A stretch of 62,503 nt of DNA, counting the filler, from Hausera hauseri (taxonomy: Eukaryota), in the NCBI GenBank assembly GCA_046269625.1. It is 11 parts of 11 records of this genome, joined end to end, with 100 filler letters (N's around TTAATTAATTAA, not from the genome) between each part and the next. Parts side by side here need not be neighbours in the genome. Positions count along the whole stretch, not along the records: positions 42,761 to 48,054 come from JBJURY010287502.1; 10 more parts are not named here. One strand, written 5' to 3'. Shown here piece by piece: positions 1 to 59,702 of the stretch. How positions within the stretch are numbered: position 1 is the stretch's first letter; the number at the start of each line of letters is the position of its first letter. Below the pieces are notes generated by a model. That model saw only the letters and a list, made by a program, of their open reading frames with translations. It had not been told where the DNA came from and did no database searches. Position numbers and translations under genes: made by a program.

Positions 1-1
1 T

Positions 2-8777: not shown

Positions 8778-8794
8778 ATTTAAGCAAATGCACG

Positions 8795-26504: not shown

Positions 26505-26532
26505 TTACGCAAATACATAATGTAGTGGATTA

Positions 26533-26619: not shown

Positions 26620-26662
26620 TATTTCAACAACATTTATTAACACAACAATGTTTATAACATTT

Positions 26663-26998: not shown

Positions 26999-27063
26999 TG
27001 TATAAATATAATTCCTTAAAAACTTAATTCATATCAACATCCAACAACAATTACTGGCACTGT

Positions 27064-30014: not shown

Positions 30015-30190
30015 ATTATTGGTTTCGTATTTTAACTAATGAGATAAATTTGAAGATTTGGGATTTATCATGAATTAATTGGTTTCGCATTTTAATTGAT
30101 GAGATAAATTTATTTGAAGATTTGGGATTTATCATGAATTAATTGGTTTCGCATTTTTGATTGATTAGATAAAATTGTTTGAAGATTCAG
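30015..30190. repeat. ~60-65 bp tandem repeat, about 3 copies
   Basis: ATTGGTTTCG.ATTTT...GATAAA...TTTGAAGATTTGGGATTTATCATGAATT recurs. Confidence 0.85.
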
Positions 30191-33519: not shown

Positions 33520-34538
33520 TTCTCGTGTGATTGATAAAATCTGTGTTTATTGGGGTACAAGTACTTAAAGGTGAAAATATTCCCCCGCGGAGCGGCACCG
33601 CGAAAACAATGGCCAGACGTGTTTGTAAAATTAACGTATATTCCCTTTCATATGGTTATATATTGGGTAGGAGAGCTTGGGAATTAAAGTGGTATATGAA
33701 TTACATTGTGTGGNNNNNNNNNNNNNNNNNNNNNNNNNNNNNNNNNNNNNNNNNNNNTTAATTAATTAANNNNNNNNNNNNNNNNNNNNNNNNNNNNNNN
33801 NNNNNNNNNNNNNGTAATAGCCAACGAACAGACAAAAGAAGAAGCTACACGTAAAGCCAAAGCAGAACAATGCGTAGGGCAAATCATGGGAGTTCGAGAC
33901 GCTGCACTATATTTTGAGTATTTGCAAACAGACGAAGATAAGGAACAATACGACATAAATCTAGTACCACTAAGTGAAACAACCATTAAGGGTCCAAGAC
34001 CGAAACGCCCAATAGGCAGACCTAGGAAACTGCGAGAAGAAGTTGATTACAACGGAGAATTAATTAAAGAATTGAGACAGATGTCGATTCCGACTCTTAG
34101 CCCAGATAACGAGGAATTCAGAGAGTTAATAAAAATTTAATACCTATTGTGAATTATTCTATTTTTCGAGGAGATGCGTTGGATAATAAAGAAAAGATAA
34201 TTCTCGATGCATCCAAAATGATGAGAAGTTCACGTTTCAAACTATCAGAAAGTAACTTAACCGACGAGTCAGTGATAGAAAAGATCATGGTGGAAAACAC
34301 GAATGAAGAATTAAGAAAAGTATTACTATACTTAGCTAACAAAATAAATCCTAATCGAGAGAATGAAATCAATAGGACTATAGGCTTAGCACGGAGAGCG
34401 GCAAGAAGAATGCCTTGCGAAGTAAATTGGGCAAGACTATTTGACAAGGAAGAGGACAAACGAAACAACAATAAACTCGACGATATGTTACGTAGCCTGA
34501 CGACGTCAGACGTTGGAGGTCGAAAAAATGAATCAAAT

Positions 34539-36390
34539 TGGCTAATTAACTTGCTTACTTTAATGATGCTAATAATGCAGATAAGCGCGGTAACCGTCTA
34601 TGATTGCGATAAGTTTAAATTAGGAGAGAAATATTCTTTAATAGATCTAGAAGTATGCGAGGACGCCAGGCCGCACAAATTGGAAACAAGAGAAAAAAGT
34701 TACTTTCTTTATCAACAACAAAAATTGATATCATTAGATGGAATGGAGTGTATGTTGAGACGATCGCGTAGTATCTTCCACTGTGGACTAATACACGGAC
34801 ATTCCTCTATAATTAAGCCAACTACTCCGCTAATTCCAATGTATTTAGAACGCCAACATTGCAAACAAGCTAAAGGGAACGGAAGAGTACAATGGGATAG
34901 TATACAATTAGAAATGCAACCAGGAAAGATAATCAGAGCATACAAAGTAGTAGCTAAACGGCTGGATATGCATACCGGACATTGCAATGGAGCAGAATAC
35001 GATACCGGTAAAGGATTAGAACCAAACGTGGTAGGTGTGGATTTCTAAAAATCAGAAATGCGATCACAGAAGGTAATGTTCCATAGTGTCACTAAGTTAT
35101 GCACTGAGAATCAGAAATGCCATTTACAAGACGGAACCTGTGCTTTTAGAAGTTTGGTAATAATATGGGAACCTCCCTCTGGAAGAAGCTGTAACTTTAT
35201 CAAAAATAAGGAGCTAAAGTTTAATGAAACTACCGGAAAACGATATGTAGACAAATCGGAGACTAATTCAAGAACAAGCGAAGATGTATCGGAACACCCT
35301 ACACCTACGATATTAATCTCAGACCCGCATGGATTAAACTTTATAAAAAAAGAGATGATGACTCGCTGTGATGTAGTAATATTCGCCACGAACTATGAAG
35401 AGTTCTTTGTAGCCAAAACGGAGATAAACGCGAGGACCTACAAATTGGAAACACAAGATGTCCGGATTGAGGAATACATGAAAAATAGAGATGATTACTT
35501 CTACTATAAAGGACAAGTCGGAATAACGGAATTATATAATAAAATGATAATGAATGACTGCAAATTGGATATGGAAATCATGAGAACTAAAATGGCTCTG
35601 ATATATGCAAACCCAGAATTAACTTCACCAATAATTCCCATGAGAGAAGTCATTTTCGGTCGGGTAACAGGCGAAGTATTGCTAACTTATAAATGTGAAA
35701 ATAGAGATGTACCCATCAACGTGGAAGAAAAACGTTGCATCCAGGAACTTCCTGTTATTTACCAAAATATTCCAAGATTAGTTACACCGCTGACGAGAGT
35801 GTTACTGGATAACGCTACCCAGCCAACCATCCTTAAAAATTGCAAGGCAAGCTTAGGAGAACCCATGTTTAGACGTCGTGACACAGACTGGGTCAGCCTG
35901 CCGAATGGAGGTAGCATTGCCTCCCCAAATAAATTGACAGGAACAAATCTGGCGAAATGAATCACGGACGATAAATTTCAAAACACCTTATCAAAAGTTA
36001 TATCGAAAAGGAAGGAAGAAAATCGAAACTTTCAGACAATTTCTCGCCTTTCCGCGACAGCAGACACATGAATTAAGCCGAGCCATGGCTTCTGTAGTAG
36101 ATGATACACGATACCAGGCTAAATGGGAATCTTTACTTGGCGTAAATCATTACCAATGAGTAACCACTGAAATACACTATAAAATTTGGAGAGGATTTTT
36201 GATTTTCGGACAAGCAGCATCTGGATTTTTAGCGATATACTTTCTGATACTAATGATTAAGGCAGTTATCGAAGCAGTAATTAATGGATACGAGATATTT
36301 ACATTGACTGGATTCTCTTGCAAAATACTGACTGCAATCATAACGCCTTTTGGAAAATTCTTAAATGCATACAAAGAAAGTAGATGGAAA
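34539..36390 (+). pseudogene. Chuvirus-like glycoprotein, copy 3
   Basis: WLINLLTLMMLIMQISA|VTVYDC...IFHCGLIHGHSSI...NDCKLDMEI...RCIQELPVIY...PLTRVL...FGQAASGFLAIYFLILMIKAVIEAVINGYEIFTLTGF. Confidence 0.8.
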
Positions 36391-37248
36391 TTGGACGTAG
36401 AACTCCATGTTGGCTATTATAATCACAAGCGAAAAGGGAGACCTATATTCTTGCGGAAACGAAAAGTTACAAAACCTAGTACACAAAAAAATAATTCAGA
36501 TGATGACGAGCCTAAGGTAGGAGAGATACTTTCAGGTATGAACAGACACCAGATGTATTCTGTCATTAAAGCGCCATTGCCTATGCTACCTCCTACCGCT
36601 CCAATCTACGAAGACTGTAACAAACGATCAATGAGTTCATATCAGACAGAAATATGTAAAAGAACAATTAATGTTGAAGATCCTTATGAAGGAACAAAAC
36701 GTTACGGAATTCTACGTAAAATGTGCTACCGACAATCCACAGATGATCCCAAGATGTTGTACTCACCGAGGGAATCTAAGAATATAAAAACTAGATCAAC
36801 GGTCTGGGACAACTCAAGGCTAAAAACTTTCCAAAATACCGACTTAAACACTAACAATCGAGAACCATTAATTAGTACACATGAAACGGAAGAATTACAC
36901 ATAGAAAACAACGGGTTAGATCCAAACGGAGAATTAAGACAGTTGGCAGAGAATATAGTATCCTCCTCGGAAATGCGAATCAATGGACACAAAATATCAG
37001 TAACTAAAGGTTCAAAAGTAGCATCGAACTGTTTTGGAACGGTAATAGAAGGAAAGCCCTTTGCTAAAATTATTATCGAAGATTGGGAAGTCTATGCCTT
37101 AATTGATACAGGATCCGAAATGTCTTACATCAAAAATGATTCAATACCTCAAACACTGAGAGGACAATTATATCCACCGTCTACGAAAGATCCAGAAAAT
37201 ACAGGAGCTTTTGGCCAGATGTCAAAACTGGTGTCTAAATGGAACTAA
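36199..37248 (+). CDS. Uninterrupted ORF joining glycoprotein TM and tail to the aspartic protease
   Basis: 349 aa with TM (GFLAIYFLILMIKAVI) at the N-terminus and YALIDTGSEMSYI (DTG at 37105) near the C-terminus. Confidence 0.9.
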   Translation: MIFGQAASGFLAIYFLILMIKAVIEAVINGYEIFTLTGFSCKILTAIITPFGKFLNAYKESRWKLDVELHVGYYNHKRKGRPIFLRKRKVTKPSTQKNNSDDDEPKVGEILSGMNRHQMYSVIKAPLPMLPPTAPIYEDCNKRSMSSYQTEICKRTINVEDPYEGTKRYGILRKMCYRQSTDDPKMLYSPRESKNIKTRSTVWDNSRLKTFQNTDLNTNNREPLISTHETEELHIENNGLDPNGELRQLAENIVSSSEMRINGHKISVTKGSKVASNCFGTVIEGKPFAKIIIEDWEVYALIDTGSEMSYIKNDSIPQTLRGQLYPPSTKDPENTGAFGQMSKLVSKWN

Positions 37249-37975
37249 GAAATTCAAATAGTTGGACAGATTTTCCGTCACGAATTTGCAGTTATGGAAC
37301 AACTAACTGACGACGTAAATCTAGGATGCGACTTACTAAAAATATTACCAAATACAGCGATTGACCTACAAACAGGAAAATTAATAGAAATCAGACCAAA
37401 TAAAGGCGTAAAAACGCTAAAGATCGAAAATTTGGAGAAGTGTGGATACCAATCGAAGAAAACATTCCACCGAGAACAGAAATAATAATTTATGTTTAAG
37501 TTCAACAAGACAACGATCAACCGGTGTACTTCGAACCAAAGGAGACATTAAATTTAAATATAATACGAAGTACCATACTAACCAGAGTACACTCTGGTCG
37601 AGTGCCAATGAGATTAGCTAACAATGCGCAGACTCCCGTCAAGCTGATGCTTATACCACTCTAGGAGATACGTATGGGATATCCTCTATAATTATTGAAG
37701 AAAAGCCTTATAAATATGCCGAATTTCCACCTCATGTCGAAACTAAGTTCTTTCCCGAATCTTATTGTCGATTCTATGAATTATTATGCCGATATAAATC
37801 GATTATTGCTAAGGATGACGAAGACATCGGTAGAGCGAAAGCATTAAGATTGACTATTCCGTTCAAGAAAAAGCCCGGTTTGAATGAAGAAATAGATCTT
37901 GAGGATCAGAAGATGCCGAAATGGTACCCTCCACCACATTCGCTAAGGCCCGAGATAACAGAGGAAGTCGAATGA

Positions 37976-38176
37976 ATGCTTAAGGCCGATATAATTAGGC
38001 TCAGTTATAGATCCTGGTACTCACCTATCCTTATGGTTAAAAAGAAAGGTACTACGAAGCATCGATTCTGTATTGATTACAGAGCCTTAAATAATCTTAT
38101 GATGAAAGATTCCTTCCCATTACCGTCGGTAAAAGAGGCCTTAGACAGGCTCTCAGGAGCAAAATGGTTTACAACT
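37976..38176 (+). pseudogene. Reverse transcriptase N-terminus, copy 3 (runs off contig)
   Basis: SWYSPILMVKKKG..HRFCIDYRALN..FPLP..LDRLSGAKWFTT. Confidence 0.93.
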
Positions 38177-42760: not shown

Positions 42761-43532
42761 ACATTCAGAAAGCGAAATGCTGATCTTGTCCATTTCTTTA
42801 AGGATGAAGGTCAGCTATGTTCATGCACTGATATAGATGGCTTATTTTCTGCCTTACATAAAATTTATGATGCATCCAATTGGCGTCTTTTTATAGATTC
42901 ATCCAAGCGCAGTTTGAAAGCTGTGTTATTACATAATGGCAATCAACACCAAAGCATTCCACTAGCACACTCTGTGCATTTGAAAGAATCTTACGACAAC
43001 ATGATACTTCTTCTACGAGCAATCAACTATAACATGTATCAATGGCATATTTGTGGTGATCTCAAAGTCATTGAATTGTTACTTCGAATGCAAGAAGGTT
43101 TTACCAAATATTGTTGTTTTTTATGCTTCTGGGACAGTCGAGCTAAAAACGCACTGCGCAAGGAAAGAATGGTCATCTCGGGAGTCATTTCATCCAGGTT
43201 GATGCAGTGTTTAACACAATCCATTAATCGACCCCAAAAGTTGTATGTCTCCACTTCACATCAAGTTGGGATTGATGAAAAACTTTGTCAAAGCTCTTGA
43301 CAAAAGTAGTGTGGCATTAAAATACCTGTGTAATAAGTTTCCACAAATCAGTGATGCAAAACTTCGTGGAGGTATATTTGTGGGACCACAAATTAGGCAA
43401 GTCATGTCTGATTCTAATTTTGATACGAGCATGAGTGAAAGTGAGTTAAATGCATGGAAAGGTTTAAAAAACACAGCAGACTACTGCTGGACACTTCTGC
43501 GCGATGCACCTAATGTTCAATACAAAAGGTAA
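42761..43532 (+). mobile_element. CMC/Chapaev3-like transposase fragment, internally deleted
   Basis: WRLFIDSSKRSLKAVLLHNGN, CGDLKV, FTKYCCFLCFWDSRA, PLHIKLGLMKNFVKAL, GIFVGPQIR, then a jump straight to ADYCWTL (the last catalytic segment appears missing). Confidence 0.75.
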
Positions 43533-44156
43533 TGCAAAAAACTCATTATATAATTGAATATATTAAATATATTGGATATATTAAAAATTGTGATATATTA
43601 AAAACGTGATGTGTGTTACGACTCCTTAAGCAACATTTTGGACAAACCCCTCCGTGATGAATTCATTGATAAAAACGTACATTTACACTTCACATTAGTA
43701 ATTTTGATGACTATTAAATGAAACATTTTGGACAAACCCCTCCGTGATGAATCTTTAGTACATTTGAAACGAAATAAACCATTATCTTTTACCCATTATC
43801 TTTTGTTGTAACATGTCAAGTCCCTCATGATGGACATTTTTATTTTCCCTGTATTTTGTACGATTAATGTACCCCTAACCCTGTTGGTAAGCCGAGAGGA
43901 TACGTTGTTCAGTAAAATGAAAAGAGACTTCAAAATACACAGAATATAGTAAAGAGAAATGAATTATTATATTAAATTTTAAAATGAAGGATAAAAGTTA
44001 GTTGAAAACGAATAATCATACTAAATTTCAGTAGAGTCGTTATATTAAATATTAAGAATAAAAAACAAATTCGTTTCAATAGAATTAAATAGAATTATTA
44101 TATTATATTATTAAATTGTGCTAGAAATTTTGATATAACGAATTTTGTTATTCATT

Positions 44157-44458
44157 TGGAATTTCCATATTAAAAATGGAAAATAGCGACATGATATCGC
44201 AATATCCAAAAATAAATTGACGTCATTATATTTTTAACATGACGTCACTCCCAAAATAGAAGCCACCAAGTATAAATACTTCCACAAAATTCACTTAGAC
44301 ACACGCAAAAAACTCTCTAGAAACTAACTTCGAATTTCGAAAGTATTCAATTCCCACAGGTTAGGCCCTGAGATGAATTTTAAATGATTATTATATTCAC
44401 AGAAACATGGCCGAAAATAACAATAGCGATCACAACAATTCATTTGAAGGAGAATCAG
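44157..44458 (+). promoter_or_regulatory. Second copy of the CRE/TATA promoter plus leader: TGACGTCA 44218 and 44240, TATAAATA 44271, 43-nt intron 44360-44402, leader exon 44407-44458 MAENNNSDHNNSFEGES with phase-1 donor at 44459
   Basis: Homologous to 28555-28911 with every functional-looking site conserved. Confidence 0.72.
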
Positions 44459-46274
44459 GTACGCATACTCTTGGTTTATTTATGTTTTGTTTTTATTTTT
44501 CTTATATGAATTTGTAATATTAATAAAAATTTATAAAATTAAATCTGATCTCAAAAGGGGATGTGTTGGTAATATGTGTAAAGGAGATCTACAAATGAAG
44601 ATAATGGCTACTGAAACTTCAGAAAATCATCAGGTACAGATATATGACAAGGAACACGACAGACACGACAGACAGGAAGGGTTGACGGGACTCGAAACCT
44701 GCGACGTAACAATGTATCTAACGATCCACCAGCATGATAAATGGTAAATGACTCTATCCAATAAGTGTCAGAGATGCATGATTAGTGGTTATGAATATAT
44801 TAATAGTTGTGGTTTATCGTTATTGATAGTAGTATCGCATCGGATCCGTTCATGAATGCAAATCGTATGTTCAGATTATTTTATGATTTAGCAAAATACT
44901 TGCATTACAGAAATCAGACAAAAGACAAATTGACGGATGATTACAGAAATCAGACAAAAGATAAATTGACGGATGTACTGTCGGCATGTACCTTTGTGGT
45001 ATCGATTTAATGTGCGATTTGTTGTGGAACGAAGATGGTAGTGTCATTGAAAGTTAAATAGACTTATATTCGGTCAAACTACATTATGATAGTAATTATA
45101 AATAAAACATGTTTACATTTGTGTATTTGGTTTAAATTAAGCTACAGTATAACAACAGCTATAAATAAATTCAAGCTGTATGGAACAGATACTTTGTACT
45201 ATAATTGGAGTAGTGTTCGGTTTGCAATATTCGATTTTGATCGTATTATTTTGGTATATTATGTTTAAAAGGTAATATTTTAGAATAGTATAGGTTTTAG
45301 CATTAGATCTGCAATATTTGGTTATAGTAGTGCTTTTAAATTAACTTAGCGTATTATGTAATCCATTTCTAAAATGCTATGCATCAGAGGTGTTTAATTA
45401 TTTTAATCCATTTCTAAAATGCTGTGCATCAGAGGTGTTTAATTATTTTAGTGTATCATGTAATCCATTTCAAAGTGCTGTACGGTATATATTGATACTA
45501 TGTCAAGGGTTGTGTGAATAGCATTTTGACTCTGATTTTCGATTTAATCACATTGTCGTAATTTTTACAATATTTCTTGACTCTACTCTGGGAGTGTATT
45601 GATTGTATTCAGGACAATATTGAGATCATAAGATATGATGATAATTTCCTGTTCCATTTTATTATTATACCCAACTGCCACCTTCAATTACTGTGCTTAA
45701 TGATAATTCTCCTCACTACGTTGGCTTATAATCAGGGCAAGAATTATTAAATTTTGATTGAATTGAAGATCAAAGAAGACAGAAAACCCGAGCTTATTAC
45801 CTCAGAGGATAAGAAGATCTCATGATGATAAATGTAAGAGAAAAATTCGAACGGAGACACGAAGACAGTGGAACTCACAAACCTTCAGATCATGAGACAA
45901 ATAGAGATACCCCGATCAATCAGTAAAGAGCAAATGCATTTTGGAAGATGTGAATACTTTAAAACTTTATGTCTCATGTTTGGAAAAACTCAAAGTTGGA
46001 TCAATAACAATAAGGTGAGATCGTTTTGGGGAAGAAATGTATATCTATTCCGGACTAGTAAAAATGATACTTTTAATAGAGGAGTTTGGATGAAAGTGGG
46101 TAATAGAATCGCAAACAGATGTGAATTATTTATATGTTAGGTACTATTTAAGGTTATCAAATATACTAACCCCTGTACCACCAACATATAAACTGGTGCC
46201 CCGAGTGAGGACACTATATTGATAAAATGATCAATAATTTTAAGGTGAAGTTATTATCTAAATTTGAAATTCAG

Positions 46275-46588
46275 ACGACGATCCGTATGCACCATTGAGA
46301 TGCGAAATATGTTGCGGATTACTTGGGAGGAACTATGCGTTACTACGATGTACGCATATTATGTGTGTGAAATGTGCGGATAGATGGCTATCCAAGAGCC
46401 AAACATGCCCTTTCTGCAGAAGAAAGACGAGCTCGTACCAATGCAGAGGAGCCACAGTGGTGGTGATATTGGATGACGAAGAAGATGAAGAAGGAAGCGA
46501 GACAGAGGGGAATGGAAACCTGTTACCAGAAAACCAGCACGACTTATATGTGTTCGGGCCCAACGGGCTTGTATATATGCCAATTTAA
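46275..46588 (+). CDS. C3HC4 RING-finger cassette 1 (probable terminal exon; acceptor TTCAG ending 46274)
   Basis: CEIC-x-CTH-x-CVKC-x-W-x-CPFC plus acidic tail; no in-frame ATG ahead of the RING; AATAAA at 46587. Confidence 0.85.
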
Positions 46589-46751
46589 TAAAATAGAATA
46601 TTTATTTCGATTCTGATGAAGAATAATGGGACCCAATGGGATTAGTGATAGTGCATAGGGTGACAATAAATCGATTATAGTAGTAATAGAGTATGAAGTT
46701 TATCTTAGAAAGGAATAAATTAAGGAATTAACTGAATTACATTGCTTTTAG

Positions 46752-46987
46752 GTTGTGTTATTTGCAAAAGATTTCCAGAAACTTGGAACTAAGAGGACAA
46801 TCCATGCCCCCTATGTCAATTGGTGGAACAGTTAAACCAACCAGATGATCTATTTGAATGCAGTTATTGCGGAGAAGAAATTAACATAGGTTTAATGGCG
46901 CTGGACGAAGACTGTCGTTTATTGTGTCCTGTGTGTGATATGACCTGGAACGATCTGGAAGAAATTGATAAACTAATTAACCTATGA
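46752..46987 (+). pseudogene. Zinc-binding cassette 2 (four CxxC pairs; one internal stop)
   Basis: CVIC..*..CPLC...CSYC...CPVC after acceptor TTTTAG ending 46751; AATAAA at 47001. Confidence 0.6.
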
Positions 46988-47052
46988 AATTTGTAATAAG
47001 AATAAATAAATTGATTATTATACTTAGTAAAATTAGATTTCATTGATTATAG

Positions 47053-47465
47053 AAAGATGCCCCATCTGTCTGGACAACATAACGGGCGAAAGGACAGTGT
47101 TACCATGCGGACATATATATTGCCAACCTTGTATCAACACTTGGCTAGAAGAACAAAGCAATTGTCCCTGTTGTCGACGAACCTGCACCTTTTGCTGGAT
47201 GTGCCTCAAATTGGTGGCAGATAATCTAGTGGTCTTGTCATGTCGTCACGTATTTTGCCGACCGTGTATTTTGGAATACCTGAGTTGCAATCAGTATTGC
47301 CCTTATTGTCTAGAAACAGTGGATTTCTATGTTGCAGAGGAAGTTATTACCTATCTGAACATTGACAATCGTCCATCCATAGTATTAGTGATTGATGAAG
47401 ATGATGGCAGTTGGCCAGAAGCGTGGAGAAATCCACAACCTTATACTATGTTGGACATAGATTAA
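47053..47465 (+). CDS. Double C3HC4 RING-finger cassette 3
   Basis: CPIC..LPCGHIYCQPC..W..CPCC and CWMC..SCRHVFCRPC..CPYC; acceptor TAG ending 47052; AATAAA at 47470. Confidence 0.88.
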
Positions 47466-47589
47466 ATTAAATAAAATTAATAGTAGCAAATCGTTTATTT
47501 CATTTTCTTAAGGCTTACCTTGTATTGCGAATTCGTCAACCATACTGAGTCACGGGTTTCCAGTATTCCGCCAAATCAATGATATAAGC

Positions 47590-47820
47590 ATGTACACAAT
47601 ATATAACCCAAATGGAAACTTCACTCCTGTAGGAAATCAATGCCCAATTTGTTTGAATGGGTATTCAGTGGACCCAGTGGAGTTGGTCCCTTGTAAGCAC
47701 CAATTTTGCAGACAGTGCTTAAAGGAATGGTTTACTGTCGCAATTTCATGCCCAGTGTGTCGCGCTGATAATAAATTATTCCGATATGGACACAGTTATT
47801 ACACAATAAAAAATTTATGA
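47590..47820 (+). CDS. C3HC4 RING-finger cassette 4
   Basis: CPIC..PCKHQFCRQC..W..CPVC; in-frame phase-1 acceptors ending 47512 and 47632; AATAAA at 47805. Confidence 0.85.
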   Translation: MYTIYNPNGNFTPVGNQCPICLNGYSVDPVELVPCKHQFCRQCLKEWFTVAISCPVCRADNKLFRYGHSYYTIKNL

Positions 47821-47859
47821 ATGGAATTAGTGTTTTTATTTGATTGGGTTATATTTTAG

Positions 47860-48054
47860 CTGAAATGCAAAGGACAAAAGAATTCAAACTTCGAACACCT
47901 GGACGGTACGAACATGTCAAGTCAATACAACCTAATATCGCGCAGTATATTTTACATTATCAGAATAGACAATTCGGACCAACATCATTTGTTAAAAGAC
48001 TGATAAGCTACTCTAGAGCCATAGTGATGGACAACTCCATGAGAGATGCACAAA
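47860..48054 (+). CDS. Cassette 5, unknown product (3' partial)
   Basis: Open frame AEMQRTKEFKLRTPG... after acceptor TTTTAG ending 47859. Confidence 0.4.
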
Positions 48055-48154
48055 NNNNNNNNNNNNNNNNNNNNNNNNNNNNNNNNNNNNNNNNNNNNTT
48101 AATTAATTAANNNNNNNNNNNNNNNNNNNNNNNNNNNNNNNNNNNNNNNNNNNN

Positions 48155-50860
48155 AGGTACTCAACTGAGCCTGCCATGTTTGCTTGTGGTAGGTTGACCA
48201 TTATGTCGTCCAGTTCTTGTCTGTCGACTACCCATTGAAATGAACCGTACGGCAAGCGTTGACAAAGCGCCCAGCCGTACAGGTTATTAATATAAATATA
48301 CAGATGTGATGTGATATCGGTAGCACTGACCTGATGCTTGTTGATAAATGTCATGGCGCCGCGAATACCAACATCAAATATTCGGTATATTTCCAGGTTT
48401 TGCAGTATTTCAATATCTCGATCCAGTGACATTAGAGCTGACGCCCAACTAATTCCTGTTATGGAATAAAAGTTGAGTTACTCCAACCTATCTTCTGCCA
48501 GCGCTTTGGTTTAAAATGCTTCAGACACGTCGGTTAATAAGTACACGTCCAGTTTAAGATACTGAAGGATGTAATCCAACATGTTTCTACAGCCGAGTTC
48601 TGTCCAACACCTGTGCTTTGCAGTATTTATCCTCTGCGGTACCTGTCCATCGCGGCGGTAATTCCTGTGCTGTCCGGAGTTGTTCATATGATGTTGCAAA
48701 TTTATATGGAAATATGACTTTACTGCGTGATATATGTGAAAGGAACTGCGTCAGTGCTATCGGCACATCTGGCAAGGCATTTACCACCTTTGCCAATGAT
48801 TTATTGAGAAATTGCAATGCACAAGGGAAGCGTCCCTGGAACCGGTTAATACCAGCATACAGTGAGAAGTATTTCTCCCTCGTAGTCGGAATTATTGAGA
48901 GTTCCCAGTGCGGGAAGCCGTCAATGCCCCTATTGAGAATATGGTGACAGTCATAACCTCGGAAATTATGAAAGATCACTGGCAGGAATGGTCGCACTCG
49001 CCTTACTAAATTGCATGAATTGCATGTTGCTCCCAAGTATCGACCGGTGAAATGTTCGTGATCCGGTACGAGCCGTTCCTATGCATCAAACGGTATTCTT
49101 TTGTGGCACATATAGCATTCATCGATGAACGCGAAAAGCAACGGTTGATATTCGTCTGCCCAAATCAGAGGCTTATTGCAATTGTTACGATACCACGGCG
49201 CGATTTCCGTTTCCACTATGGTTTCCAGCTGCTGCAGGAAATCACGTACACTATTCCGACCATGGAAAACGTAATACTGCGGTTGTCCGGCGGCTTTTAT
49301 TGGTACCAGCAACGGCAATTGGAACGTGCTTTTGATCGTATACATTGTGCCGTGGTAGAATTCCTTCGATATCGGCATACATCAGACATGCAGGACTGTT
49401 CGTTTTTGACCAGTCAGTGAATCTCAACTCCTTTTTGACTGGCATAACATACATTGTGGTTCCTGACGAATTTTTGCTGAACAGCGTTACATGCTTTTCT
49501 CATGTCTCATTTGACCGGAATCTATGCAGACACACTGGACACCATTTGCATTGTATTCGCCATTTGGTGAACTGGTCATGCTCTATGTTTAACAATCTGT
49601 CCAAATTGGTCACGGCCTTGTAATGAAGCTTTTCTTCATTTTCCAACAGCAACAAATTTACTGGGCGTTTAATTGGATTTCGACTGCGGTAAATTATGTC
49701 CACGTGACGATTCTTGTAAATTTCCTCATCCACCGGTATCTCCACGATTGTGTTGAACCGGAACACGTTGATTCCTAGTGTCGGATTACGCCGTTCAAAA
49801 TCCGGAATGGATTTCAGTTTCATCTGCATCCAACACTTGTCGTAGTTTAATTCTCAGAAATACTGTACTGCTTTGGACAATTTGCATGATGTCTGAATAC
49901 TTGATCATATTTCATTATGTCCAGAATGCGGTAAATAAAACAGTATTCGTCGTTAATATTTTGCACATTCACTACCGTCAGAGACTGCTTCAAGGATGCA
50001 GGTCTCGGCATGAATGAACTTCAGGACAGGTAAATAATGTCACTCGTCTTGGTCAGAATAAAGCCTAGAGTGACAATCTTTACCATTTGCCAACCAGTGC
50101 CCTTTTTTGTAGTTGGCGATATTTTCGTCAAGCTTTTCGCCTACATTGGCAATAAAATTCTCAGAGTATGGTATGGCTCGATGTGACAGATACTATTGTT
50201 TCCTGTCACCCTGCAGATTTTCAAATTTTCCAAGTGCATAATATTGCACTTTGCAGTGGTCTTGTTGGAATTTGGCCACCTCTGATTTCAACTTGTTACG
50301 TACATTAGCGGGTACATCTTTCAACTGCGTTGCTGTTTTCGCCGGCATGTCCACCTTTATGTCCACGTACGATCTGTTTAGGTCGTACTTGACAGTAATG
50401 GGCGGTTCACGTTCTTGCTGCAGCTTTTGCTGTTTCTGACTTCTGTAGTTTTGAAAGTATTCGTCAAGGCTTGCTGATGCTTGACGTTTCCTGATGCTGC
50501 TTCTTGCTGCGTCCATTAATATTTCCTTTTTGGACCTCTGAAACTGGTTCAAGTGGTATATGTGGTTATTGTAGAATTTTTCATAGTTGACTTGCGCCTC
50601 AACTATAGAACAACCGGGACAAACATAGACCCGTTTACCGTGCACCGATGTGGTTGTTGTTGTTGTTGTACCATAGTACTGTTCCATTGCACTATTGTAA
50701 CCATCAACGTCATGCACCTTACAAGTACAGTAACGTGGGTATGTGGGGCAATGCACATGCATCATCTTAGACCGCGTGAATGGACCGAGATGATGCTTGT
50801 GCATCTCATAAAAGTCGGCGTACGGGCATGTGTTTTGAATAAAACACACGGGACACAGTT
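48155..50860 (-). pseudogene. Protein-primed PolB of a second Polinton-like family, N-terminal two-thirds, degenerate
   Basis: PDFERRNPTLGINVF, LHYKAVTNLDRLL, CPVC, YADIEG, CYMC..HFTGRYLGATCNSCNL (endonuclease VII-like insert), PVIFHNFRGYDCH, YLKLDVYLL, GIRG, INNLYGWAL. Confidence 0.9.
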
Positions 50861-51137
50861 ACGTGTCCTTGGCCACTGAATAATATTTTGCCATTTCCTT
50901 GTGGCATTATCCACCCTCGTGTATGCGGGAGACGCAGTACATGGAATATTGCAAACATTTCTGAATGATAAAAATTAAAGTAAATGTTAGACGAAAAACA
51001 AATAAAATGTATTAATTATAAATAAATAAATGTAATTACAGTACATCATAACTTATTCCCCTTACTGCAGTCTCAGACGTCGCCTAAATCGGCTATAAAC
51101 GTTTATCAACATTACTACTACTACTACTATAAATCAA

Positions 51138-51410
51138 ATGGAAGAGTATATTGAAAGTGAAATTCAGAGACTGACCGATGACATTTTGACCGGACATGTA
51201 TTTGATGTACAGTTTTTTGTGGTCACAGAAACGGGAATAATGAGCAGACTAGAGCATATTGAATTGATAGATATATCTCTCTTCGTAAAACGTATCGAGA
51301 ATGAAATGAGACGAAAACCGCAACAACGACGGCGGATTACTTTCCTCATTGGACTTGCATTTTCTGCTTCGCTTTGTATTGTAAGGAAAAAGTTGATTGA
51401 ACTTATTTAA
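51138..51410 (+). CDS. Small hypothetical ORF divergent from pPolB
   Basis: ATG ORF preceded by TATAAA motifs near 51094 and 51128; no family recognised. Confidence 0.4.
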   Translation: MEEYIESEIQRLTDDILTGHVFDVQFFVVTETGIMSRLEHIELIDISLFVKRIENEMRRKPQQRRRITFLIGLAFSASLCIVRKKLIELI

Positions 51411-51517
51411 TCACAAATGATGCATTTATTTTCGTAAATCAATATAATTTATTTCGCGTGTCTTTGTTATTACATTTCAGTATAAAAACGCGTTACTTTA
51501 CGGTATCACATTACGAC

Positions 51518-51967
51518 ATGTCCCATTTAACAGAACTCATTCGTTTATATTACTCGTTCGACGGTCTGCGAAGTCACCTTTACAATGTTGATAGACCTTT
51601 ACATAACGCACGATACTGTTCGCCCGAAGAAATACTCCAGCATGCTGAAGACAATTGGAGGGCACGAGAACTTTATGTGCGACATATGAAGCAGGTTGTT
51701 GGTGACATGGATATGATATTCGGTCAGTTGTTTCGCACCTGTCGGAAATTGGCGGATTACTATGCGTTGGATGACAATCCATGTCAAATACGGTTTGTGG
51801 AAGATTTTGTCAAATGTGATTAGATTGGTGATTACATTCCAACGTGGAAGTTAGCGGATCGGATTTGTTTCAAGCAACATTGCAATGTAACTAATTCTCA
51901 TGGACTCGTTCATTCTCCTGATGATTTGGTTAACCCATATGCTTTGTGTGCTCCTAATATTCATTAA
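51518..51967 (+). pseudogene. Hypothetical ORF with one internal TAG (51821), Cys/His-rich end
   Basis: The frame of 51458-51823 continues IGDYIPTWKLADRICFKQHCNV..HGLVH..CAPNIH to TAA at 51965. Confidence 0.35.
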
Positions 51968-52101
51968 AAGCCATTTACTTGTTCGACTCAGACTTGACTT
52001 GGCAGCATACCTGATTGTTATAGCCAGACAGGTGTGGTTCGACCAAAAACTAGGTTACCGAAAAACTAAATGATCCTTATAGTTAGACACGTGAGGAAAT
52101 G

Positions 52102-52767
52102 CAGGTGTCCGAAACTGGGTCAGTCCAAAATTTTTTCCGACTCAACTCATTGCGGTGAGTCCGAATATTCAGGTGTCCAAAACTGGGTCAGTCTACAATT
52201 TTTTCCGACTCAGCTCATTGCGGTGAGTTGGATTATGCAGGTATCCGAAACTGGGCCAGTCTACAATTTTTTCCGACTCAGCTCATTGCGGTGAGTCCGA
52301 ATATTCAGGTGTCCAAAACTGGGTCAGTTTACAATTTTTTTCTACTCAACTCATTGCGGTGAGTCCGAATATACATATGTTCGAAACTGGGTCAATCCAA
52401 AACCTTTTCCGACTCAATTTATTGCGGTTAGTCGGATTATGCAGGTGTCCGAAACTGGGTCAATCCAAAACTTTTTCCGACTCAACTCATTGCAGTGAGT
52501 CCGAATATTTAGGTGTCCAAAACTGGGTTAGTCTACAATTTTTTCCGACTCAGTTCATTGCAGTGAGTCCTAATATGCAGGTGTCCGAAACTGAGTCAGT
52601 CCAAAATTTTTCCGACTCAACTCATTGCGGTGAGTTGGATTATGCAGGTATCCGAAACTGGGTCAGTTCGAATTTTTTCGACTCAACTCGTTGCGGTGAG
52701 TCCGAATATACATATGTTCGAAACTGGGTCAATCCAAAACCTTTTCCGACTCAATTTATTGCGGTTA
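52102..52767. repeat. 68-bp tandem repeat array (~10 units, runs off contig) with an internal inverted repeat
   Basis: Units start at 52102, 52170, 52238, 52306, 52374...; consensus CAGGTGTCCGAAACTGGGTCAGTCCAAAATTTTTTCCGACTCAACTCATTGCGGTGAGTCCGAATATT. Confidence 0.95.
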
Positions 52768-52984
52768 NNNNNNNNNNNNNNNNNNNNNNNNNNNNNNNNN
52801 NNNNNNNNNNNTTAATTAATTAANNNNNNNNNNNNNNNNNNNNNNNNNNNNNNNNNNNNNNNNNNNNCTTTTTTTCAATTTTTTCAAAAAAACAGTGATA
52901 AAATTTAAGTAGTATATAATATCAGTATTTCAAAAAAATGAAAAAAATGTTTTCAAATACTGACATTATATACTACTAACGCCA

Positions 52985-55900
52985 AACATCAGCAAGCCCT
53001 TACGAGTACTTTCAAAACAATAAAAGTCAGAAACAGCAGCAGCAGCAGGAACGTGAACCGCCCCTTACTGTCAAGTACAACCTGAACAGATTGTACGTAG
53101 ACATGAAGTTGGATATATCAGCGAAAACCGCAACGCAATGGAAGGATGTACCTGCTAATGTGCGTAACCGGGTGAAATCAGAGGAGCCAATTCCTCCAAC
53201 ACCACCACCATTGCAAAGTGCAATATTATGCACTTGCAGAATTCGAAAATCTGCAGGGTGACAGGAAACAATGGTACCTGTCACATCGAGCCGTAGCATA
53301 CTATGAAGATTTTATTGCCGATGTAGGCAAAAAGCTTGATGAAAAATCTCCAGATTCATCGAAAAGGGCAGTGGTTGACGAATTGTACAAATCGTTACTC
53401 TTGGCTTTATTCTGACCAAGACGAATGACATGATTTACCTGTCCGTACGTTCATTCATACCGACACCAGCAACCTTAAAGCAGTCTCGGGCAGTAGTATA
53501 TGTACAAAATACTAACGACGAATATTGCTTTATTTACAGCATTCTGGCCGTATTGAAATATGATCAAGTGTCCAGACATCATGAAAATTGTGCAACGTAG
53601 TACAGTAAATGTTTCTCAGAATTGGATTACGACGCTTGTTGGATGCCGATGAAACTTGAAACCATTCCGCCTTTTGAACGGCGTAATTCTACACTGGCAA
53701 TCAACGTGTTCCGGTTCAACACAATCGTAGAGATACATATGTAAAAAAATTGTACAAGAATCTTCACATGGACATAATTTACGACAGTTGAAATCCAATT
53801 GAAGGCCCAGTAAATTTGAAAAAAAGTTTCATTACACGGCCGTGACCAATTTGGACAGATTGTTGAACATGGAGCACAACCAGTTCATCAAAAAGCGTAT
53901 ACGGTGCAAATGATGTCCCGCGTGTTTGCATGGATTCCGGTCAAATGAGACATGGGCAAAGCATGTGGCGTTGTGCAGGCAAACGTCGCCAGGAACCACA
54001 ATGTGTATTATTCCAGTCAAAAAGGAGTTGAGATTTAGTGATTTGTCAAAAACGGTCAATCCGGCATATGTGGTGTATGCCGATATCAAAGCAATTCTAC
54101 CACGGCACAATGCATAAGATCAAAAGCGCGTTTCAATTGCTGTCGGTATGTTGCTAGTACCAATAAAACCCGCCGGACAACCGCAGCATTACGTTTTCCA
54201 CGATTGGAACTGTGTACGTGGTTTTCTGCAGCAGTTGGAAACCATAGTGGAAACGGAGGTCGCGCCGTGGTATCGCAACAAATGCATTAAGCCATTGATT
54301 TGGGCAGACGAATATCAACCGTTGCTTTTCGCTGTCACTGATGAACACTATCTGTGCCACAAAATAATACCCTTTGATGCACAGGAACGTCTCGTACCGA
54401 ATTAAAACCATTTCACCGGTCTATACTTGAAAGCAGCATGCAATTCATACAACTTAGGAAGGCGACTGCGACCATTCCTTCCGATGATCTTTTATAATTT
54501 CCAAGGTTATGACTGTCACCATATTCTCAAATGGGCCATTAACGGCTTTCCGTACTGGGAACTGTCCATAATCCCAACGACAATGGAGAAATACCTATCG
54601 CTGTTGGGACGAGTAAGCCGATTCCAGGTATGCATCCTTGATTCATTGCAATTTCTCAACGAATCAAAGCTAGTAAATTTCTTGCCAGATATGTCGATAG
54701 CACTGACGCAGTTCCCTGCACATATTGAATGCAGCAAAGGCATATTTCCATATTACTTTGCAACATCATATGAGCGACTCCGGAAAGCAGAGGAATTACC
54801 GTCGCGATAAACAGGTATCGTCGAAGGTAGATATCGGAGAGCACAAGAATCTTGGACACAACTGAGTTGTAGAAACATTTTGGATCACATGCTCCAGTAT
54901 CTTAAACTGGGCGTGTACTTATTAGCCGACGTTTTCGAAGCATTTCGTACCAAGGCGCTGATGGAAGATAGGTTGGAGCCACTGAATTTTTATTCCATAT
55001 CGGGAATGAGTTGGGCGTCAGCTCTAATGTCACTGGATCGAGATTGAGCTGCTCCAAGACTGGGAAATATACCAGCTGCTTCATGTTGGTATTCGCGGTA
55101 GCATGAAATTTGTCAACAAGCATCAGGTCAGTGATATTGATATCACATCACTGATCTATATTGATATTAATAACCTGTACGGCTAGGCACTTTCACAACC
55201 CTTGCCGTATAGTTCATCTGAATGGTTAGTCGACAAACAAGATCTGGATGACATAATGGTGAACCTACCACGAGTACACATGGCAGGCTCAGTCGGATAC
55301 TTAATGGAGGTCGATCTCGAGATACCATATGAACCGCATGACGTTTTGGACGATTTACCAGTTGCACCATTTAACCAATATCCGCCAGGCTGAAAAGTGA
55401 AGAAACTGCTCATGACGCATGAACCGAAGCTGAAATATGTGGTCCATTGGAGTCTGCTACAGTACTACTTACAGCTAAACATACGCGTCACACAGCTGCA
55501 TCGTGCAATCAGATTTGCTCAGGCCCCCATATTCAAGGCGTATATAGATGAAAATTGGGAGAAAAAAGCCGCAGCTTGTACATAGTTCGAAAAGGACTAC
55601 TAAAAGCTGAAAATCAATTCCCTGTATGGAAAAATAGTGGAGAATCTGGAAAAGTGGCTCAATGCGCTTATGCAACTCGGAAAAGCGACTAGTTACGTAT
55701 ACCAGCAAGAAACAATTTCGACGGTCAATACACATTGTCGATTAATTGGTTGTGGTGCTGTTAAACAGAGAAGAAGTCGTTCTGGACCGGCCAAGTTACA
55801 TCGAACAAGTGGTATTGGACCTAAGCAAGTTGCGGATGTATGAGATGCAATATCGGGTTTTGGTACGATACCGCCAAATGTTCGGCGGCGTCAATACTGA

Positions 55901-56390
55901 CATAATTGCCGGTAACACAGATAGTTTTTTTCTGCGGCTGAAAAAACTCAATCGCAAACAACTACTGCAGCATATGATGGCAGACGAATTACTGGACACG
56001 TCCAATTACCCACAGAATTATCCATTGTACAGCAAGGCCATCACAAACAAAATCGGCTGCTTCAAGGATAAAAGTGAAGGTCGGATTCAGTATCGGGAAA
56101 GGATAATTCTACGGCCAAAATGTTATAGCCTTTTAACCGACGGTGGACCGAAAATGCGCGCCAAGGGAGTTCAGTTGGCCAAGACAAAAATAAACCACGG
56201 TGATTATCGCCGTGTCTGTGAAAAAGAAGGAGGACAATCAAAGGCTGTTGTGTCTCAAACGATCATACGATCAATTGAGCACCAGTTGTATACGGTGATC
56301 GATACAAAATTCGCTTTATCATGCAGTGATAAAGGAAAGTGTGTGGGACGAAATAAGAGTTGGGCGTACGGACATTGGCGTTTGAGATAA
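52985..56390 (+). pseudogene. Protein-primed PolB, same family as 48155-50860, near full length and degenerate
   Basis: Colinear with the contig-9 copy; adds KLKINSLYGK, LDLSKLRMYE, AGNTDSFF (DTDS site altered), LRPKCYS, MRAKGVQ. Confidence 0.92.
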
Positions 56391-56653
56391 CACACGTTTA
56401 GTGTTCACAAACAGTTCAGTGCAAACATGCAATTAAGTCCAGCTAGACCATTGACATTAACAGTTTTTGTCTTCTGTTTTATAGCAAGGAAATGGGGCTT
56501 AAGTTCGTTTATTGAAAATAAATTTAAAAATCTCATTACTCAAAACCTCAAATACTTTTCATTACTAATTTAAATCACAACACCAAAAACTCAAATAAAT
56601 TTTATTATAAATCATAAACTAACAACACCAAAAACTAAAAAGAGTATGTCAAG

Positions 56654-56953
56654 TCAATTCATTGCGGTAAACTTCCCCAACCTCCACACTGGCGATTTAA
56701 TACCGTGCAGTTCCTTATATCCTTTCAGCTTCACTGTCAAGTATCCTTTTACTCCTTCCATTGGCAATACTGCGGTTTATCCACTTGCACTCACAATTTT
56801 CGCCCTGTTGCCTTTAAGGAAAAGCGAGGATGTGTCCCGATTATCATTGAACAACATCAAATCACTGTCCACTTTCTTTATCGTTTCCTCCAATGCATCT
56901 GGGTCACTGTCACCGATTTTTTTTACCAACAGACCATATTTTATTTGTTTCAT
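56654..56953 (-). pseudogene. Small convergent ORF with one internal stop, possibly an OB-fold ssDNA-binding-like protein
   Basis: MKQIKYGLLV...LFLKGNRAKIVSASG*...GYLTVKLKGYKELHGIKSPVWRLGKF; beta-strand pattern only. Confidence 0.3.
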
Positions 56954-57465
56954 TTTAATCTATGTTGATAATTGCACTAGAATGGGGGTTAGCAGGAAGT
57001 GAAGATTGTACCCGTTGTACACTCTGGACTGTCTGAGGGAATGCGGATTGTACTTGGACTCACTGTTCCTTTCTAGATACATATTAAGGACTAAAAGTAA
57101 AAATGAAATGGACTTACTAAAACCTGGCACAACTGAACTGCCGATGTTGTTGTCGTTGTTGTTGCTGCTGCAGATGCTACTGTTTTATTGTACAGATATT
57201 TTAGAGACAAAGTGAAATGAAAAGACATTCATATTCATACCAAATTTATTCAAATCCGTTTATTTTCGTTGTAAACAATGTACCAAATATGTATCAACCG
57301 GTTTGCCATCATTGTAAACAATAGACAACGGTTAATGAAGCCAGTGACCAAATTTGCTCCAACTNNNNNNNNNNNNNNNNNNNNNNNNNNNNNNNNNNNN
57401 NNNNNNNNTTAATTAATTAANNNNNNNNNNNNNNNNNNNNNNNNNNNNNNNNNNNNNNNNNNNNA

Positions 57466-58157
57466 GCAGTAAACGGAAAAACTCCGAAAATAAAATACTG
57501 TTCTGTTCATGCCGGTGTGCAACACCCATGTTGTAAGCTACCAGTAAACCAAGAATTCAAAATAAAATTTGATCTATATTAAGTAAGACCGAATACACCC
57601 AGCAAACATTTGCGAACTTATTAGCCAAAGGATAGAGTATGGAGGAGTCCAATAGAAACTACAACCGAAAAGCCGACTACTCAAGTTAGTGCCATTACGA
57701 GATCCGATACATTAAACATTATGCCTAAAAGAGAATAAAAAAGTATACCTATAAAATAATCGGTACATAGATTTAAAATTGTGTTCTTTGTAAAAGAAAA
57801 ACAAAATTATGATATACATCTAAGTTGTCGAACGACGTATAATAATCAAATTGTAACACTGGTTAGAGACCTTACCGGGCAAAATGCATTTTGCTAAAAC
57901 CACAATCCGATTATATAATCCAAGTATATGCAGCAGATAAACTAAACCAAACAATTAAATTGCGTAGCTTAGATGTAAATTGTCCAGAATTGCATATATA
58001 TGCAAACATAGATGATGAAATCGCAACTCCAGTCACCACACAAGCACCAATGGAATTAACCGCTTTAAGGATCATATCGATTGTCGTACTGTCAACGTTT
58101 GTTCCCACTACATTGATTGAAATTTTTTCGGTTAGTTGCCAAAAATTATCATTCTAA
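57466..58157 (+). pseudogene. Degenerate membrane protein: Cys-rich repeat, Thr-rich stalk, FN3-like segment, TM
   Basis: CSVHAGVQHPCC.., ETTTEKPTT, LKPQSDYIIQVYA (FN3-like), hydrophobic IISIVVLSTFVPTTLIEIFSV. Confidence 0.5.
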
Positions 58158-58281
58158 GCTTCCTAGGATCACAGAATGGAAATTAAGGGAAAGGGAACCC
58201 ACGATTGATCCTATGATAAAATAACATAACAAATACAGAACGGGTTATTTTCTCATTGGTTTAAATTCAGGAACCTCATTT

Positions 58282-59702
58282 ATGGTAATAGTAACCCTTA
58301 TTGTTCATTTTTCAGACTTGAAACCGATCACAAGGCCAGACGACGTAGCATCGACGAACCAAGAAAAGAGAGCGCTCAGGAACTCCGACATAGTATCGAC
58401 AGATTCTTCCAGAATCACGCTACCGTACTACTCCCAAATTCTAACTCCATATACCGAAAAATTCACAATGAATTGCATAGAAGCGTTTCCGTAAAATACG
58501 ACCAGGTCCACGCAATTCCAAACAATTTGAAAGGAGTCACCGAAGAAAAGAGAATCCTTTGCTTATATGCTATGAAGGACGACAGAGATGGCAAAGCGTA
58601 CTTCCTTAAACAACTGTTAGATTACGAACTTGGCCGAAATATCTACATATATCTAGCCTACGGTAAAATATATTACCTATTCAAGGATCAGGAATGGAAT
58701 AGGAACAAGGGAAGGCAGTATAGGTTTAGTACTTTTAGCCCATGCAGTAAAGATTTGCAGCTTTGGAATTCCGAGTAGCTGCTCTTCCCGTCAAGATAAT
58801 ATTCGAAATAACTTATGAAGAACAAATCCGAGTTCCGTTGCCACCCTTAGAATTTTGGCAAAAACCATCAACAGGAGAGCTGAAAATCTCTTTAAAATCA
58901 TATAGATTGGCACCAGACGCCAAAAATACCAGAATTGTAGCTATCAACTGTGGAGAAGGAAGTAATGTAGAGAAAATTGCAATGGAAATCTCCATTAGAG
59001 AAACAAACGGAGTAGAGGTATACCACACGATCATCAGTCCGAGAAGACGTGTCAGAGAAACACATTACGACCTAAGAGGAATCCGCAAGGAAACCCTTCA
59101 AAACGGAAAGAATATCAGACTTATACACACCAAGTTGGAGCATTGTCTATATGGGTATGTCATTGCTGGATATCTTATTCACGAAACTATGGAATTATTA
59201 CAAGTACCAGCAAACCAAGAGGTTATTACGAGAAAGGAATTATCCCATGCCAAAAATTATGGATGCCTACTTTAAATTATTAGTCGGCGCCATGAGTAGT
59301 AGCCATATCAAAATCAGCAAGAGGTTGACAGCGAGTCAACGCACCCAATACCTCCGTGACATTTATGCATGTCTAAAATGGGATCACAGATGGATTCCTA
59401 GCAACCCAGGACGAAATGTACGCAGCTCTTGAGACCCAGAATTTATAAACAGAAAGTATCGAAAGCAGTATTGTCCATACAGCCCATACAGAACTGTTGA
59501 ACCCATGGAACCGGACAATCTTCGAATAACAATCCGGAGAGATGTCCAAGGACTAAGCAGAGATGAATTACCTAGTACCAGTTACAAAAGACCTGAAACG
59601 ATAACACAAGAACCGGCTACAACCGGAGTATTTAAAGTTTGTCATATTCCCAAGAAAAAGAAAAGAATAGAAATGCCAACCCAAGTATCGAAAGAAAAAT
59701 AA
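58282..59702 (+). pseudogene. Frameshifted coding region of unknown product
   Basis: Chain of overlapping + strand ORFs with A-rich, protein-like composition; no motif recognised. Confidence 0.35.

Follow-up and report, generated by a model that had tools for sequence, protein, structure and literature searches.

The adenovirus major late unit uses one promoter, a common spliced leader and alternative 3' splice and poly(A) sites in compact DNA (PMC7851563). No AUG is present in its tripartite leader, and the start codon comes with each body (PMC7851563). We analysed a locus with a related layout in a stretch of 62,503 nucleotides from Hausera hauseri (assembly GCA_046269625.1), hereafter the window. 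On one of its contigs (positions 42761–48054, JBJURY010287502.1), a predicted promoter and a short coding leader are followed by an array of cassettes encoding RING or other zinc-binding domains. We consider it highly probable from the sequence that this shared leader is spliced, in cis or in trans and whatever the carrier, to alternative terminal cassettes. The full reading, in which a selfish DNA carrier has one leader, four alternative cassettes and a ligase role, we favour with moderate confidence. One donor in phase with several acceptors and a poly(A) signal per body, marks of an adenovirus-like layout, were found for four cassettes. The differences from adenovirus are that the leader is here the predicted sole start, that each cassette has an AATAAA, and that the bodies are paralogous RING/zinc-finger domains. 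A shared leader with alternative last exons is a known layout, of which the present unit would be a variant.

Other systems share parts of this layout. The common part of the fly genes mod(mdg4) and lola is a folded BTB domain. Both genes join common 5' coding exons to one of many variable 3' exons (PMC13490949), but they are single host genes that use trans-splicing, whereas the unit described here is multicopy and has a 17-residue common part without known domain. ICP0, an HSV-1 (herpes simplex virus 1) protein, combines a RING with a hydrophobic core with an acidic flank, resembling a SUMO-interacting motif (SIM) (PMC8616421). ICP0 is one long protein, whereas each unit here would encode several variants of 120–155 residues, similar to it in the generic RING core only. 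The Oncoids of adintoviruses and Polintons are small accessory proteins of endogenous animal DNA viruses with paired CxxC motifs (PMC8502044). They are defined by an LxCxE/CK2 motif (PMC8502044), and LxCxE occurs in no cassette here. Neither 'splic' nor 'RING' occurs in the main text of PMC8502044, the supplementary maps of which may show RING genes. Finally, the planarian Burro giant Gypsy elements are selfish and carry cargo tied to ubiquitination (PMC6431247), and relatives with env before pol are found on other contigs of the window. Burro cargo lies in the polyprotein or an upstream open reading frame, not in spliced last exons (PMC6431247), and no gag-pol was found on the contig studied here. 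A literature search, outside which most subscription journals lay, retrieved no paper on a spliced-leader RING unit in Polintons/Mavericks or on a transposon-encoded SUMO-targeted ligase countering silencing.

Annotation usually treats the accessory genes in large transposons and endogenous DNA viruses as plain ATG-to-stop frames. Units of the predicted kind would be missed or truncated by such callers, as may be seen in a distant relative of one cassette that begins at an internal Met (P0122, below), and whole counter-defence arsenals may therefore be overlooked.

Cassettes and their acceptors

Ten spacers of 100 nt, each a 12-nt stop linker between two runs of 44 N, divide the window into about 11 contigs, so genes on other contigs cannot be counted as linked to the RING array. 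The leader and the array share contig 42761–48054, whose end falls inside the fifth segment. Their components are the following.

44407–44458, + strand: coding leader with ATG and 17 codons, 52 nt, MAEN start; phase-1 donor at 44459 (GTACGC)
46275–46588, + strand: cassette 1, C3HC4 RING (Pfam zf-RING_2, E = 4.6e-9), SIM-like VVILDDE (46460–46480), acidic tail
46752–46987, + strand: cassette 2, four CxxC pairs (zinc ribbons; weak zinc-ribbon matches), SIM-like LMALDED (46892–46912)
47053–47465, + strand: cassette 3, two RINGs in tandem (two stretches matching Pfam zf-C3HC4_2, E = 1.2e-18), SIM-like VLVIDED (47382–47402)
47513–47820, + strand: cassette 4, N-terminal part of about 40 residues and RING (Pfam zf-RING_2, E = 1.5e-12), no SIM-like motif
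47860–48054, + strand: segment 5, preceded by a fifth AG and truncated where the contig ends; occurs in many copies (in phase 1, none of 8 listed variants synonymous)

The leader indeed ends in phase 1 before GTACGC, as a first-pass annotation of the window had described. That annotation had also proposed five RING/zinc-finger cassettes, each opened in phase 1 by an AG. The AGs ending at 46274, 46751, 47052, 47512, 47632 and 47859 do open these frames in phase 1, but the scheme holds for four cassettes, the frame of segment 5 being unsupported. The domain labels needed similar trimming. A RING zinc-ligand pattern (C3HC4/C3H2C3) exceeds the Pfam threshold in cassettes 1, 3 (twice) and 4; cassette 2 is a non-RING zinc ribbon that reached no RING family at threshold when read with X over its stop, and segment 5 gave no Pfam match. 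The stop in question, in frame at 46790–46792 of this copy, had gone unmentioned.

Two further features of the array were recovered as described. First, cassettes 1–3 have an in-frame stop 2–5 codons ahead of the acceptor and then no ATG before the first Cys of the zinc-binding domain. Cassette 4 has its stop directly adjoining the 47512 acceptor and a single ATG at 47590. For cassettes 1–3, the probability that the short open stretch ahead of the first Cys contains a phase-1 YAG is 0.30, 0.13 and 0.17 (joint 0.006 by shuffling), in a test designed after the pattern was seen. Second, an AATAAA lies within 20 nt of the stop in 4/4 cassettes (offsets −1, +14/+18, +5 and −15), overlapping the stop in cassette 1; the joint chance is about 0.001 by local shuffles, again in a test designed afterwards. 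Positions 44100–48056 hold 13 AATAAA. The distance from a stop to the next acceptor is 39–163 nt, and G+C rises across the acceptors of cassettes 1–4 (0.20 to 0.53, 0.23 to 0.30, 0.17 to 0.43 and 0.23 to 0.43), with no rise at 47632. We also considered, and rejected, a single long protein made from several joined cassettes: by eye, only in cassette 4 does a weak phase-1 GT precede the stop.

Frame conservation among copies

We compared copies of the unit using two public runs, X1 and X2 (shares 0.52 and 0.13), which differ in organism, sample and study codes and whose contigs are of unrecorded kind; X1 is possibly the source sample. The contigs aligned to 42761–48054 numbered 2108 (X1) and 330 (X2), and 1004 and 259, respectively, aligned to 46560–48054, with identities from below 90% to above 99%. 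Over these 1.5 kb, the 1004 contigs of X1 comprised 138 at 99% identity or more, 202 at 95–99%, 327 at 90–95% and 337 below 90%. The RING-array unit thus exists in many divergent copies, although the depth of aligned contigs does not equal copy number. All variant counts below rest on the 40 of 602 and 40 of 173 variants listed, and we classed every listed variant inside a cassette except one at the cassette-2 stop site. Among the contig joints (15 listed over the contig, 1 over 46560–48054), none joins leader to cassette, which is uninformative on expression.

The check on conservation of acceptor phase that the first-pass annotation had suggested came out in its favour. Of the 35 listed variants across cassettes 1–4, 25 leave the protein unchanged when read in phase 1, but only 5 do so in either of the other phases (binomial p = 2e-5 against about 35–36% expected, for variants that are linked on copies and not independent). 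The counts per cassette are 9/9, 4/7 (stop site omitted), 3/5 and 9/14. The excess begins directly at the acceptors: all five listed variants between acceptor 46274 and the first Cys of cassette 1 are synonymous, as are five of the seven between 47512 and the ATG at 47590 in cassette 4. This ATG differs in 250/411 (X1, one contig) and 26/26 (X2) of aligned depth. The five listed variants upstream of acceptor 1 are all at a distance of 16–31 nt, leaving the final 15 nt without any, while at acceptor 2 the listed change only exchanges pyrimidines within the YAG. In these copies, purifying selection on the cassette frames begins at the acceptors, ahead of both the first Cys and any ATG. A selected coding sequence that has no start of its own requires an upstream exon to supply one base of the first codon.

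The same comparison bears on individual sites. The first-pass annotation had left the cassette-4 acceptor at 47512 or 47632. The AG at 47631–47632 is missing in 571/731 (X1) and 24/47 (X2) of aligned depth; since it is mostly lost, and since the synonymous bias extends between 47512 and the ATG at 47590, we retain 47512 and reject 47632. At the cassette-2 stop, codon 46790–46792 differs from this copy in 768/859 (X1) and 47/72 (X2) of aligned depth, so the stop is a lesion of this copy.

Could the cassettes be dead fragments without starts whose phases agree by chance? Cassette 2 is broken in this copy, positions 44560–46140 are decayed, and AG is a common dinucleotide. Yet the synonymous excess directly after the acceptors, the low joint chances for phase and AATAAA placement, the leader phase retained across a 9-nt indel in a second copy, and a relative that is 47% identical and has the same tail motif unchanged (P0122; both below) make this highly improbable.

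The spacers of 39–163 nt between a stop and the next acceptor are operon-like, and one could imagine an operon resolved by host spliced-leader trans-splicing, with the terminal ATG of a flatworm leader as the start. All reported flatworm spliced leaders end in ATG (PMC12582326). Because a terminal ATG requires phase-0 acceptors, this explanation fails on frame: cassettes 1, 2 and 4 contain no phase-0 acceptor in the interval from the last stop to the first Cys, and the phase-0 AG of cassette 3 (47036) is lost in 1187/1277 (X1) and 55/55 (X2) of aligned depth. We regard it as extremely improbable.

Promoter, leader and a second leader copy

Upstream of and behind the leader, and on a second contig, we found the following features.

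44218–44247, + strand: two TGACGTCA boxes, found in the sequence; matching boxes in the second copy at 28620–28711
44271–44278, + strand: TATA box of the predicted promoter; identical box at 28735 in the second copy
44360–44402, + strand: predicted 43-nt intron in the 5' untranslated region (UTR), GTTAGG...CAG; 44-nt counterpart at 28821–28864
44522–44527, + strand: AATAAA, 64 nt 3' of the leader donor, just past the stop of an unspliced 36-codon read-through frame
45746–46140, + strand: decayed frame, possibly a further cassette; 100-codon open stretch without Pfam match, single-base indels among copies
46187–46192, + strand: second TATA-like box, found in the sequence, inside the deepest X1 depth bin
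28620–28990, + strand: second promoter, mini-intron, leader, donor and AATAAA on contig 27741–33713, found by DNA comparison

The TGACGTCA boxes we take to be a CRE/ATF-type site. The description of the leader in the first-pass annotation stood, except that the 43-nt mini-intron had been overlooked. Elsewhere in the window, a DNA polymerase epsilon gene has a candidate 51-nt intron with a GTTAGT donor, which suggests that the host splices introns of such size. The second copy is 70–82% identical to the first across promoter and leader. Its leader (28869–28911) has 43 nt instead of 52 nt, and both the MAEN start and the phase-1 donor are kept across the 9-nt indel. In both copies an AATAAA follows the donor at 64–74 nt (28985 in the second copy). 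The unspliced read-throughs of the two leaders (44407–44517 and 28869–28973) would give peptides of 34–36 residues with a hydrophobic end, followed by this AATAAA. Such a peptide might be the default isoform, or it could arise as a by-product where intron sequence is T-rich. The whole window has three RING-pattern matches, all within cassettes of 42761–48054; the second leader has no such cassettes behind it, and leader and RING array are thus seen jointly on one contig only. The promoter motif had no match in metagenome and viral contigs.

We propose that transcription would start from the TATA box at 44271 and that the 43-nt UTR intron would be removed. The leader donor would then be joined to one cassette acceptor, skipping a variable 1.8-kb intron, to give one protein per transcript that ends at the poly(A) signal of its cassette. 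The main contribution of the leader would be the start codon. Competition between each AATAAA and the next acceptor 39–163 nt downstream may serve as the isoform switch. As first proposed, one leader had alternative phase-1 ends, each with its own poly(A) signal; selection on the frames, the second leader and P0122 support that core, for four cassettes, three of them RINGs, rather than five.

An alternative is that leader and cassettes are transcribed apart and joined by trans-splicing as in mod(mdg4), the TATA at 46187 starting a start-less RNA. The AATAAA behind the donor in both copies would end a leader transcript, the second TATA-like box lies right before cassette 1 in the deepest X1 bin, and the leader is also found without RING cassettes behind it. 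In addition, the variable 3' exons of mod(mdg4) own independent promoters (PMC13490949). However, leader and cassettes are collinear, on one strand and 1.8 kb apart, so plain cis-splicing suffices; AATAAA is common in A+T-rich introns (the 13 copies counted above), and depth bins are unable to locate a motif. Separate transcription with joining in trans is quite unlikely in our view. The deepest X1 bin of the contig (46124–46300) includes, besides the second TATA-like box, a 50-nt stretch richer in G+C. The first-pass annotation had named a first exon starting from this box as the case that would contradict a shared leader. That candidate was rejected: ATG 46227 and GT 46245 give phase 0, off-frame with all four cassettes.

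Predicted products and distant relatives

If leader and cassettes are spliced as proposed, the predicted cassette products have 120–155 residues, and cassettes 1, 3 and 4 would be small ubiquitin ligases. A Trp in the central helix and an Arg after the last Cys are hallmarks of ubiquitin transfer with an E2. Both are present in cassette 1, the first RING of cassette 3 and cassette 4, and absent in the second RING of cassette 3. We searched for SIM-like motifs with a pattern that is consistent with the published consensus (PMC8616421). A match occurs in 3 of 5 segments, with a chance of 1–2% each by shuffling (about 1% for cassettes 1 and 3) and a background of 8 matches in 14,169 residues. A RING and a SIM-like motif (hydrophobic core, acidic flank) occur in one chain in cassettes 1 and 3. 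The published SIM consensus is a hydrophobic core flanked by acids, the core in PML being VVVI, and the combination of RING and SIM defines SUMO-targeted ligases such as ICP0, which clears SUMO-marked repressors from viral DNA (PMC8616421). With both elements in one chain, cassettes 1 and 3 look like ICP0-type enzymes, and we predict that they are SUMO-targeted ubiquitin ligases. They would strip SUMO-marked host repressors from the DNA of the element. If this is true, the unit provides a testable candidate for an invertebrate selfish element that undoes SUMO-dependent silencing, as herpesvirus ICP0 does.

Database searches returned one end-to-end relative. Among 1.84 billion representatives, only P0122 matched cassette 3 from end to end (47% over residues 19–140, E = 1.7e-33); the other top matches rest on RING cores. 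The 17 tail residues LVIDEDDGSWPEAWRNP, which include the SIM-like motif, are identical in cassette 3 and P0122. The start of P0122 is a Met located after the first CxxC pair; this fits a start-less cassette in another lineage. In the Atlas, one cluster near P0122 is viral, most commonly Preplasmiviricota (score 0.91, 139 shared features, phylum known for 4). The structure model of cassette 3 has a mean pLDDT of 66, with the tail below 50. Fourth in the viral fold search is an 85-aa Oncoid of an adintovirus (E = 7e-4, RING part only); this match and the viral Atlas cluster point weakly to Polinton-type viruses. Much of the same list consists of ICP0-family RINGs, and fold matches rest on the RING only (TM 0.24–0.34). 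Solved-structure and viral fold matches include RNF4, BMI1 and ICP0-family RINGs, with an equine herpesvirus RING among the solved structures. These matches confirm the RING fold; the likeness is generic and names no orthologue. A word-based search found no homologue of cassette 3 (0 of 1 candidate), and none of 103 related loci, generic RINGs, matched the cassette tails, cassette 2, segment 5 or the frames of the second contig. None of four stretches of segment 5 was found in viral contigs. The Atlas features of segment 5 resemble integrase C-terminal pieces (0.94, 150 shared features), under the family bar and as is possible for a wrong frame.

Carrier of the unit

The unit is likely carried by a multicopy, mobile or virus-like DNA element. 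Because introns and internal poly(A) signals are kept on the sense strand, a DNA-replicating carrier, Polinton- or adintovirus-like, fits best. The same splicing layout could belong to a host gene cluster, an amplified RING family, rather than to a selfish element. The contig is without mobility gene, the splice signals and intron size resemble those of the candidate host intron, and there are fly host genes that combine constant 5' exons with variable zinc-finger 3' exons (PMC13490949). Against a host cluster stand the very many copies at 80–99% identity, the broken cassette of this copy, the adjoining transposon remains, the spacers of 39–65 nt and the single full-length relative among 1.84 billion representatives. 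We regard it as unlikely.

Next to the unit, positions 43614–43920 form a high-coverage repeat that starts with TGTTAC and contains two identical 31-nt units and a GTAACA at 43808. A purine-rich tract before TGTTAC is the layout of the start of a long terminal repeat (LTR). Two X2 contigs have such a tract ahead of 43614, and the repeat is likely an LTR inserted upstream of the unit. At the start of the contig (42761–43532) are frameshifted remains, DNA-transposon-like by eye and without Pfam match.

This probable LTR raises the alternative that the unit, driven by the LTR, serves a giant, Burro-like Gypsy LTR retrotransposon as its 5' accessory region. As in Burro elements, a fusion-protein region lies upstream of pol in the window's Gypsy pieces, and Burro elements carry ubiquitination-related accessory domains (PMC6431247). 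However, the similarity of the two promoter copies starts near 43950; positions 43614–43900 lie outside it, so the repeat seems to have been inserted separately. An RNA genome would also be hard to reconcile with retained introns and with four poly(A) signals inside the unit on the sense strand, and gag or pol was not found on the contig. Such an origin is very unlikely. As to a more specific version of the DNA carrier, an endogenous Polinton-type virus of an invertebrate whose 17-codon leader, ending just past its donor, is trans-spliced onto start-less cassettes transcribed separately, any genomic copy thus starting several SUMO-targeted ligases against host transposon silencing, we consider it a long shot.

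Several observations weigh against the selfish carrier with a shared leader and four ligase-related cassettes. For the splicing, the AATAAA shortly after the donor could, in both copies, terminate transcripts before any cassette; no RING pattern occurs in the 4.7 kb from the second leader to the contig end; and the TATA-like box lies 80 nt 5' of acceptor 1, in the deepest X1 bin. For the selection, cassettes 2 and 3 are singly not significant (p = 0.22 each), and the variants are linked and drawn from the listed subsets. Segment 5 does not fit, although its EMQR frame stays open as far as the contig runs: none of 8 listed variants is synonymous in phase 1, and 5 are in phase 0 (p = 0.09). The contig that carries P0122 is 756 bases long, and its edge could also account for the absent start. 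For the carrier, no capsid, polymerase, integrase or terminal repeat was found on contig 42761–48054, and the LxCxE of adintovirus Oncoids is present in 0 of 5 segments and not in the leader. For the function, the SIM consensus is degenerate and many matches are spurious (PMC8616421).

Other contigs of the window

Three contigs (22296–27640, 48155–52767 and 52868–57364) contain decayed frames similar to protein-primed DNA polymerase B (PolB), one with a capsid-like end. The PolB-like pieces and the capsid-like piece (27064–27405) presumably belong to Polintons. One of the former matched a PHROG DNA polymerase (E = 3e-7). The PolB-like pieces lie on other contigs beyond spacers and share no DNA similarity with contig 42761–48054. 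Two of the three contigs have small CxxC frames upstream, and a 68-nt tandem array occupies 52031–52767.

Positions 1–13800 and 33814–38176 hold three decayed Gypsy copies in which, as in planarian Burro, protease and pol are preceded upstream by a Monjiviricetes-type fusion protein; Gypsy pieces on other contigs include RNase H and integrase. Behind the second leader, about 2.2 kb of long broken frames (31299–33519) gave no Pfam, PHROGs, solved-structure or word-based match, the word-based search with frame 32347–33516 finding none among 2183 candidates. A piggyBac-like assignment of 32347–32835, made by eye, was dropped: there was no solved-structure, Pfam or PHROG match and the model had a pLDDT of 35.

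The polymerase epsilon catalytic gene lies on the minus strand (15479–22110) as a 2185-codon open frame with the one candidate 51-nt intron (22037–22087). Tail to tail with it is an uninterrupted CHD1L-like frame on the plus strand (14019–15020). The best matches of the latter are animals at 54–58%, and in a tree of 50 rows (49 of 120 matches) it forms a long branch beside trematodes (support 24). By its sequence, this is a very intron-poor animal locus. Lastly, 57867–59432 contains broken frames with a hydrophobic segment, by eye like the post-integrase cargo of the Gypsy contig.

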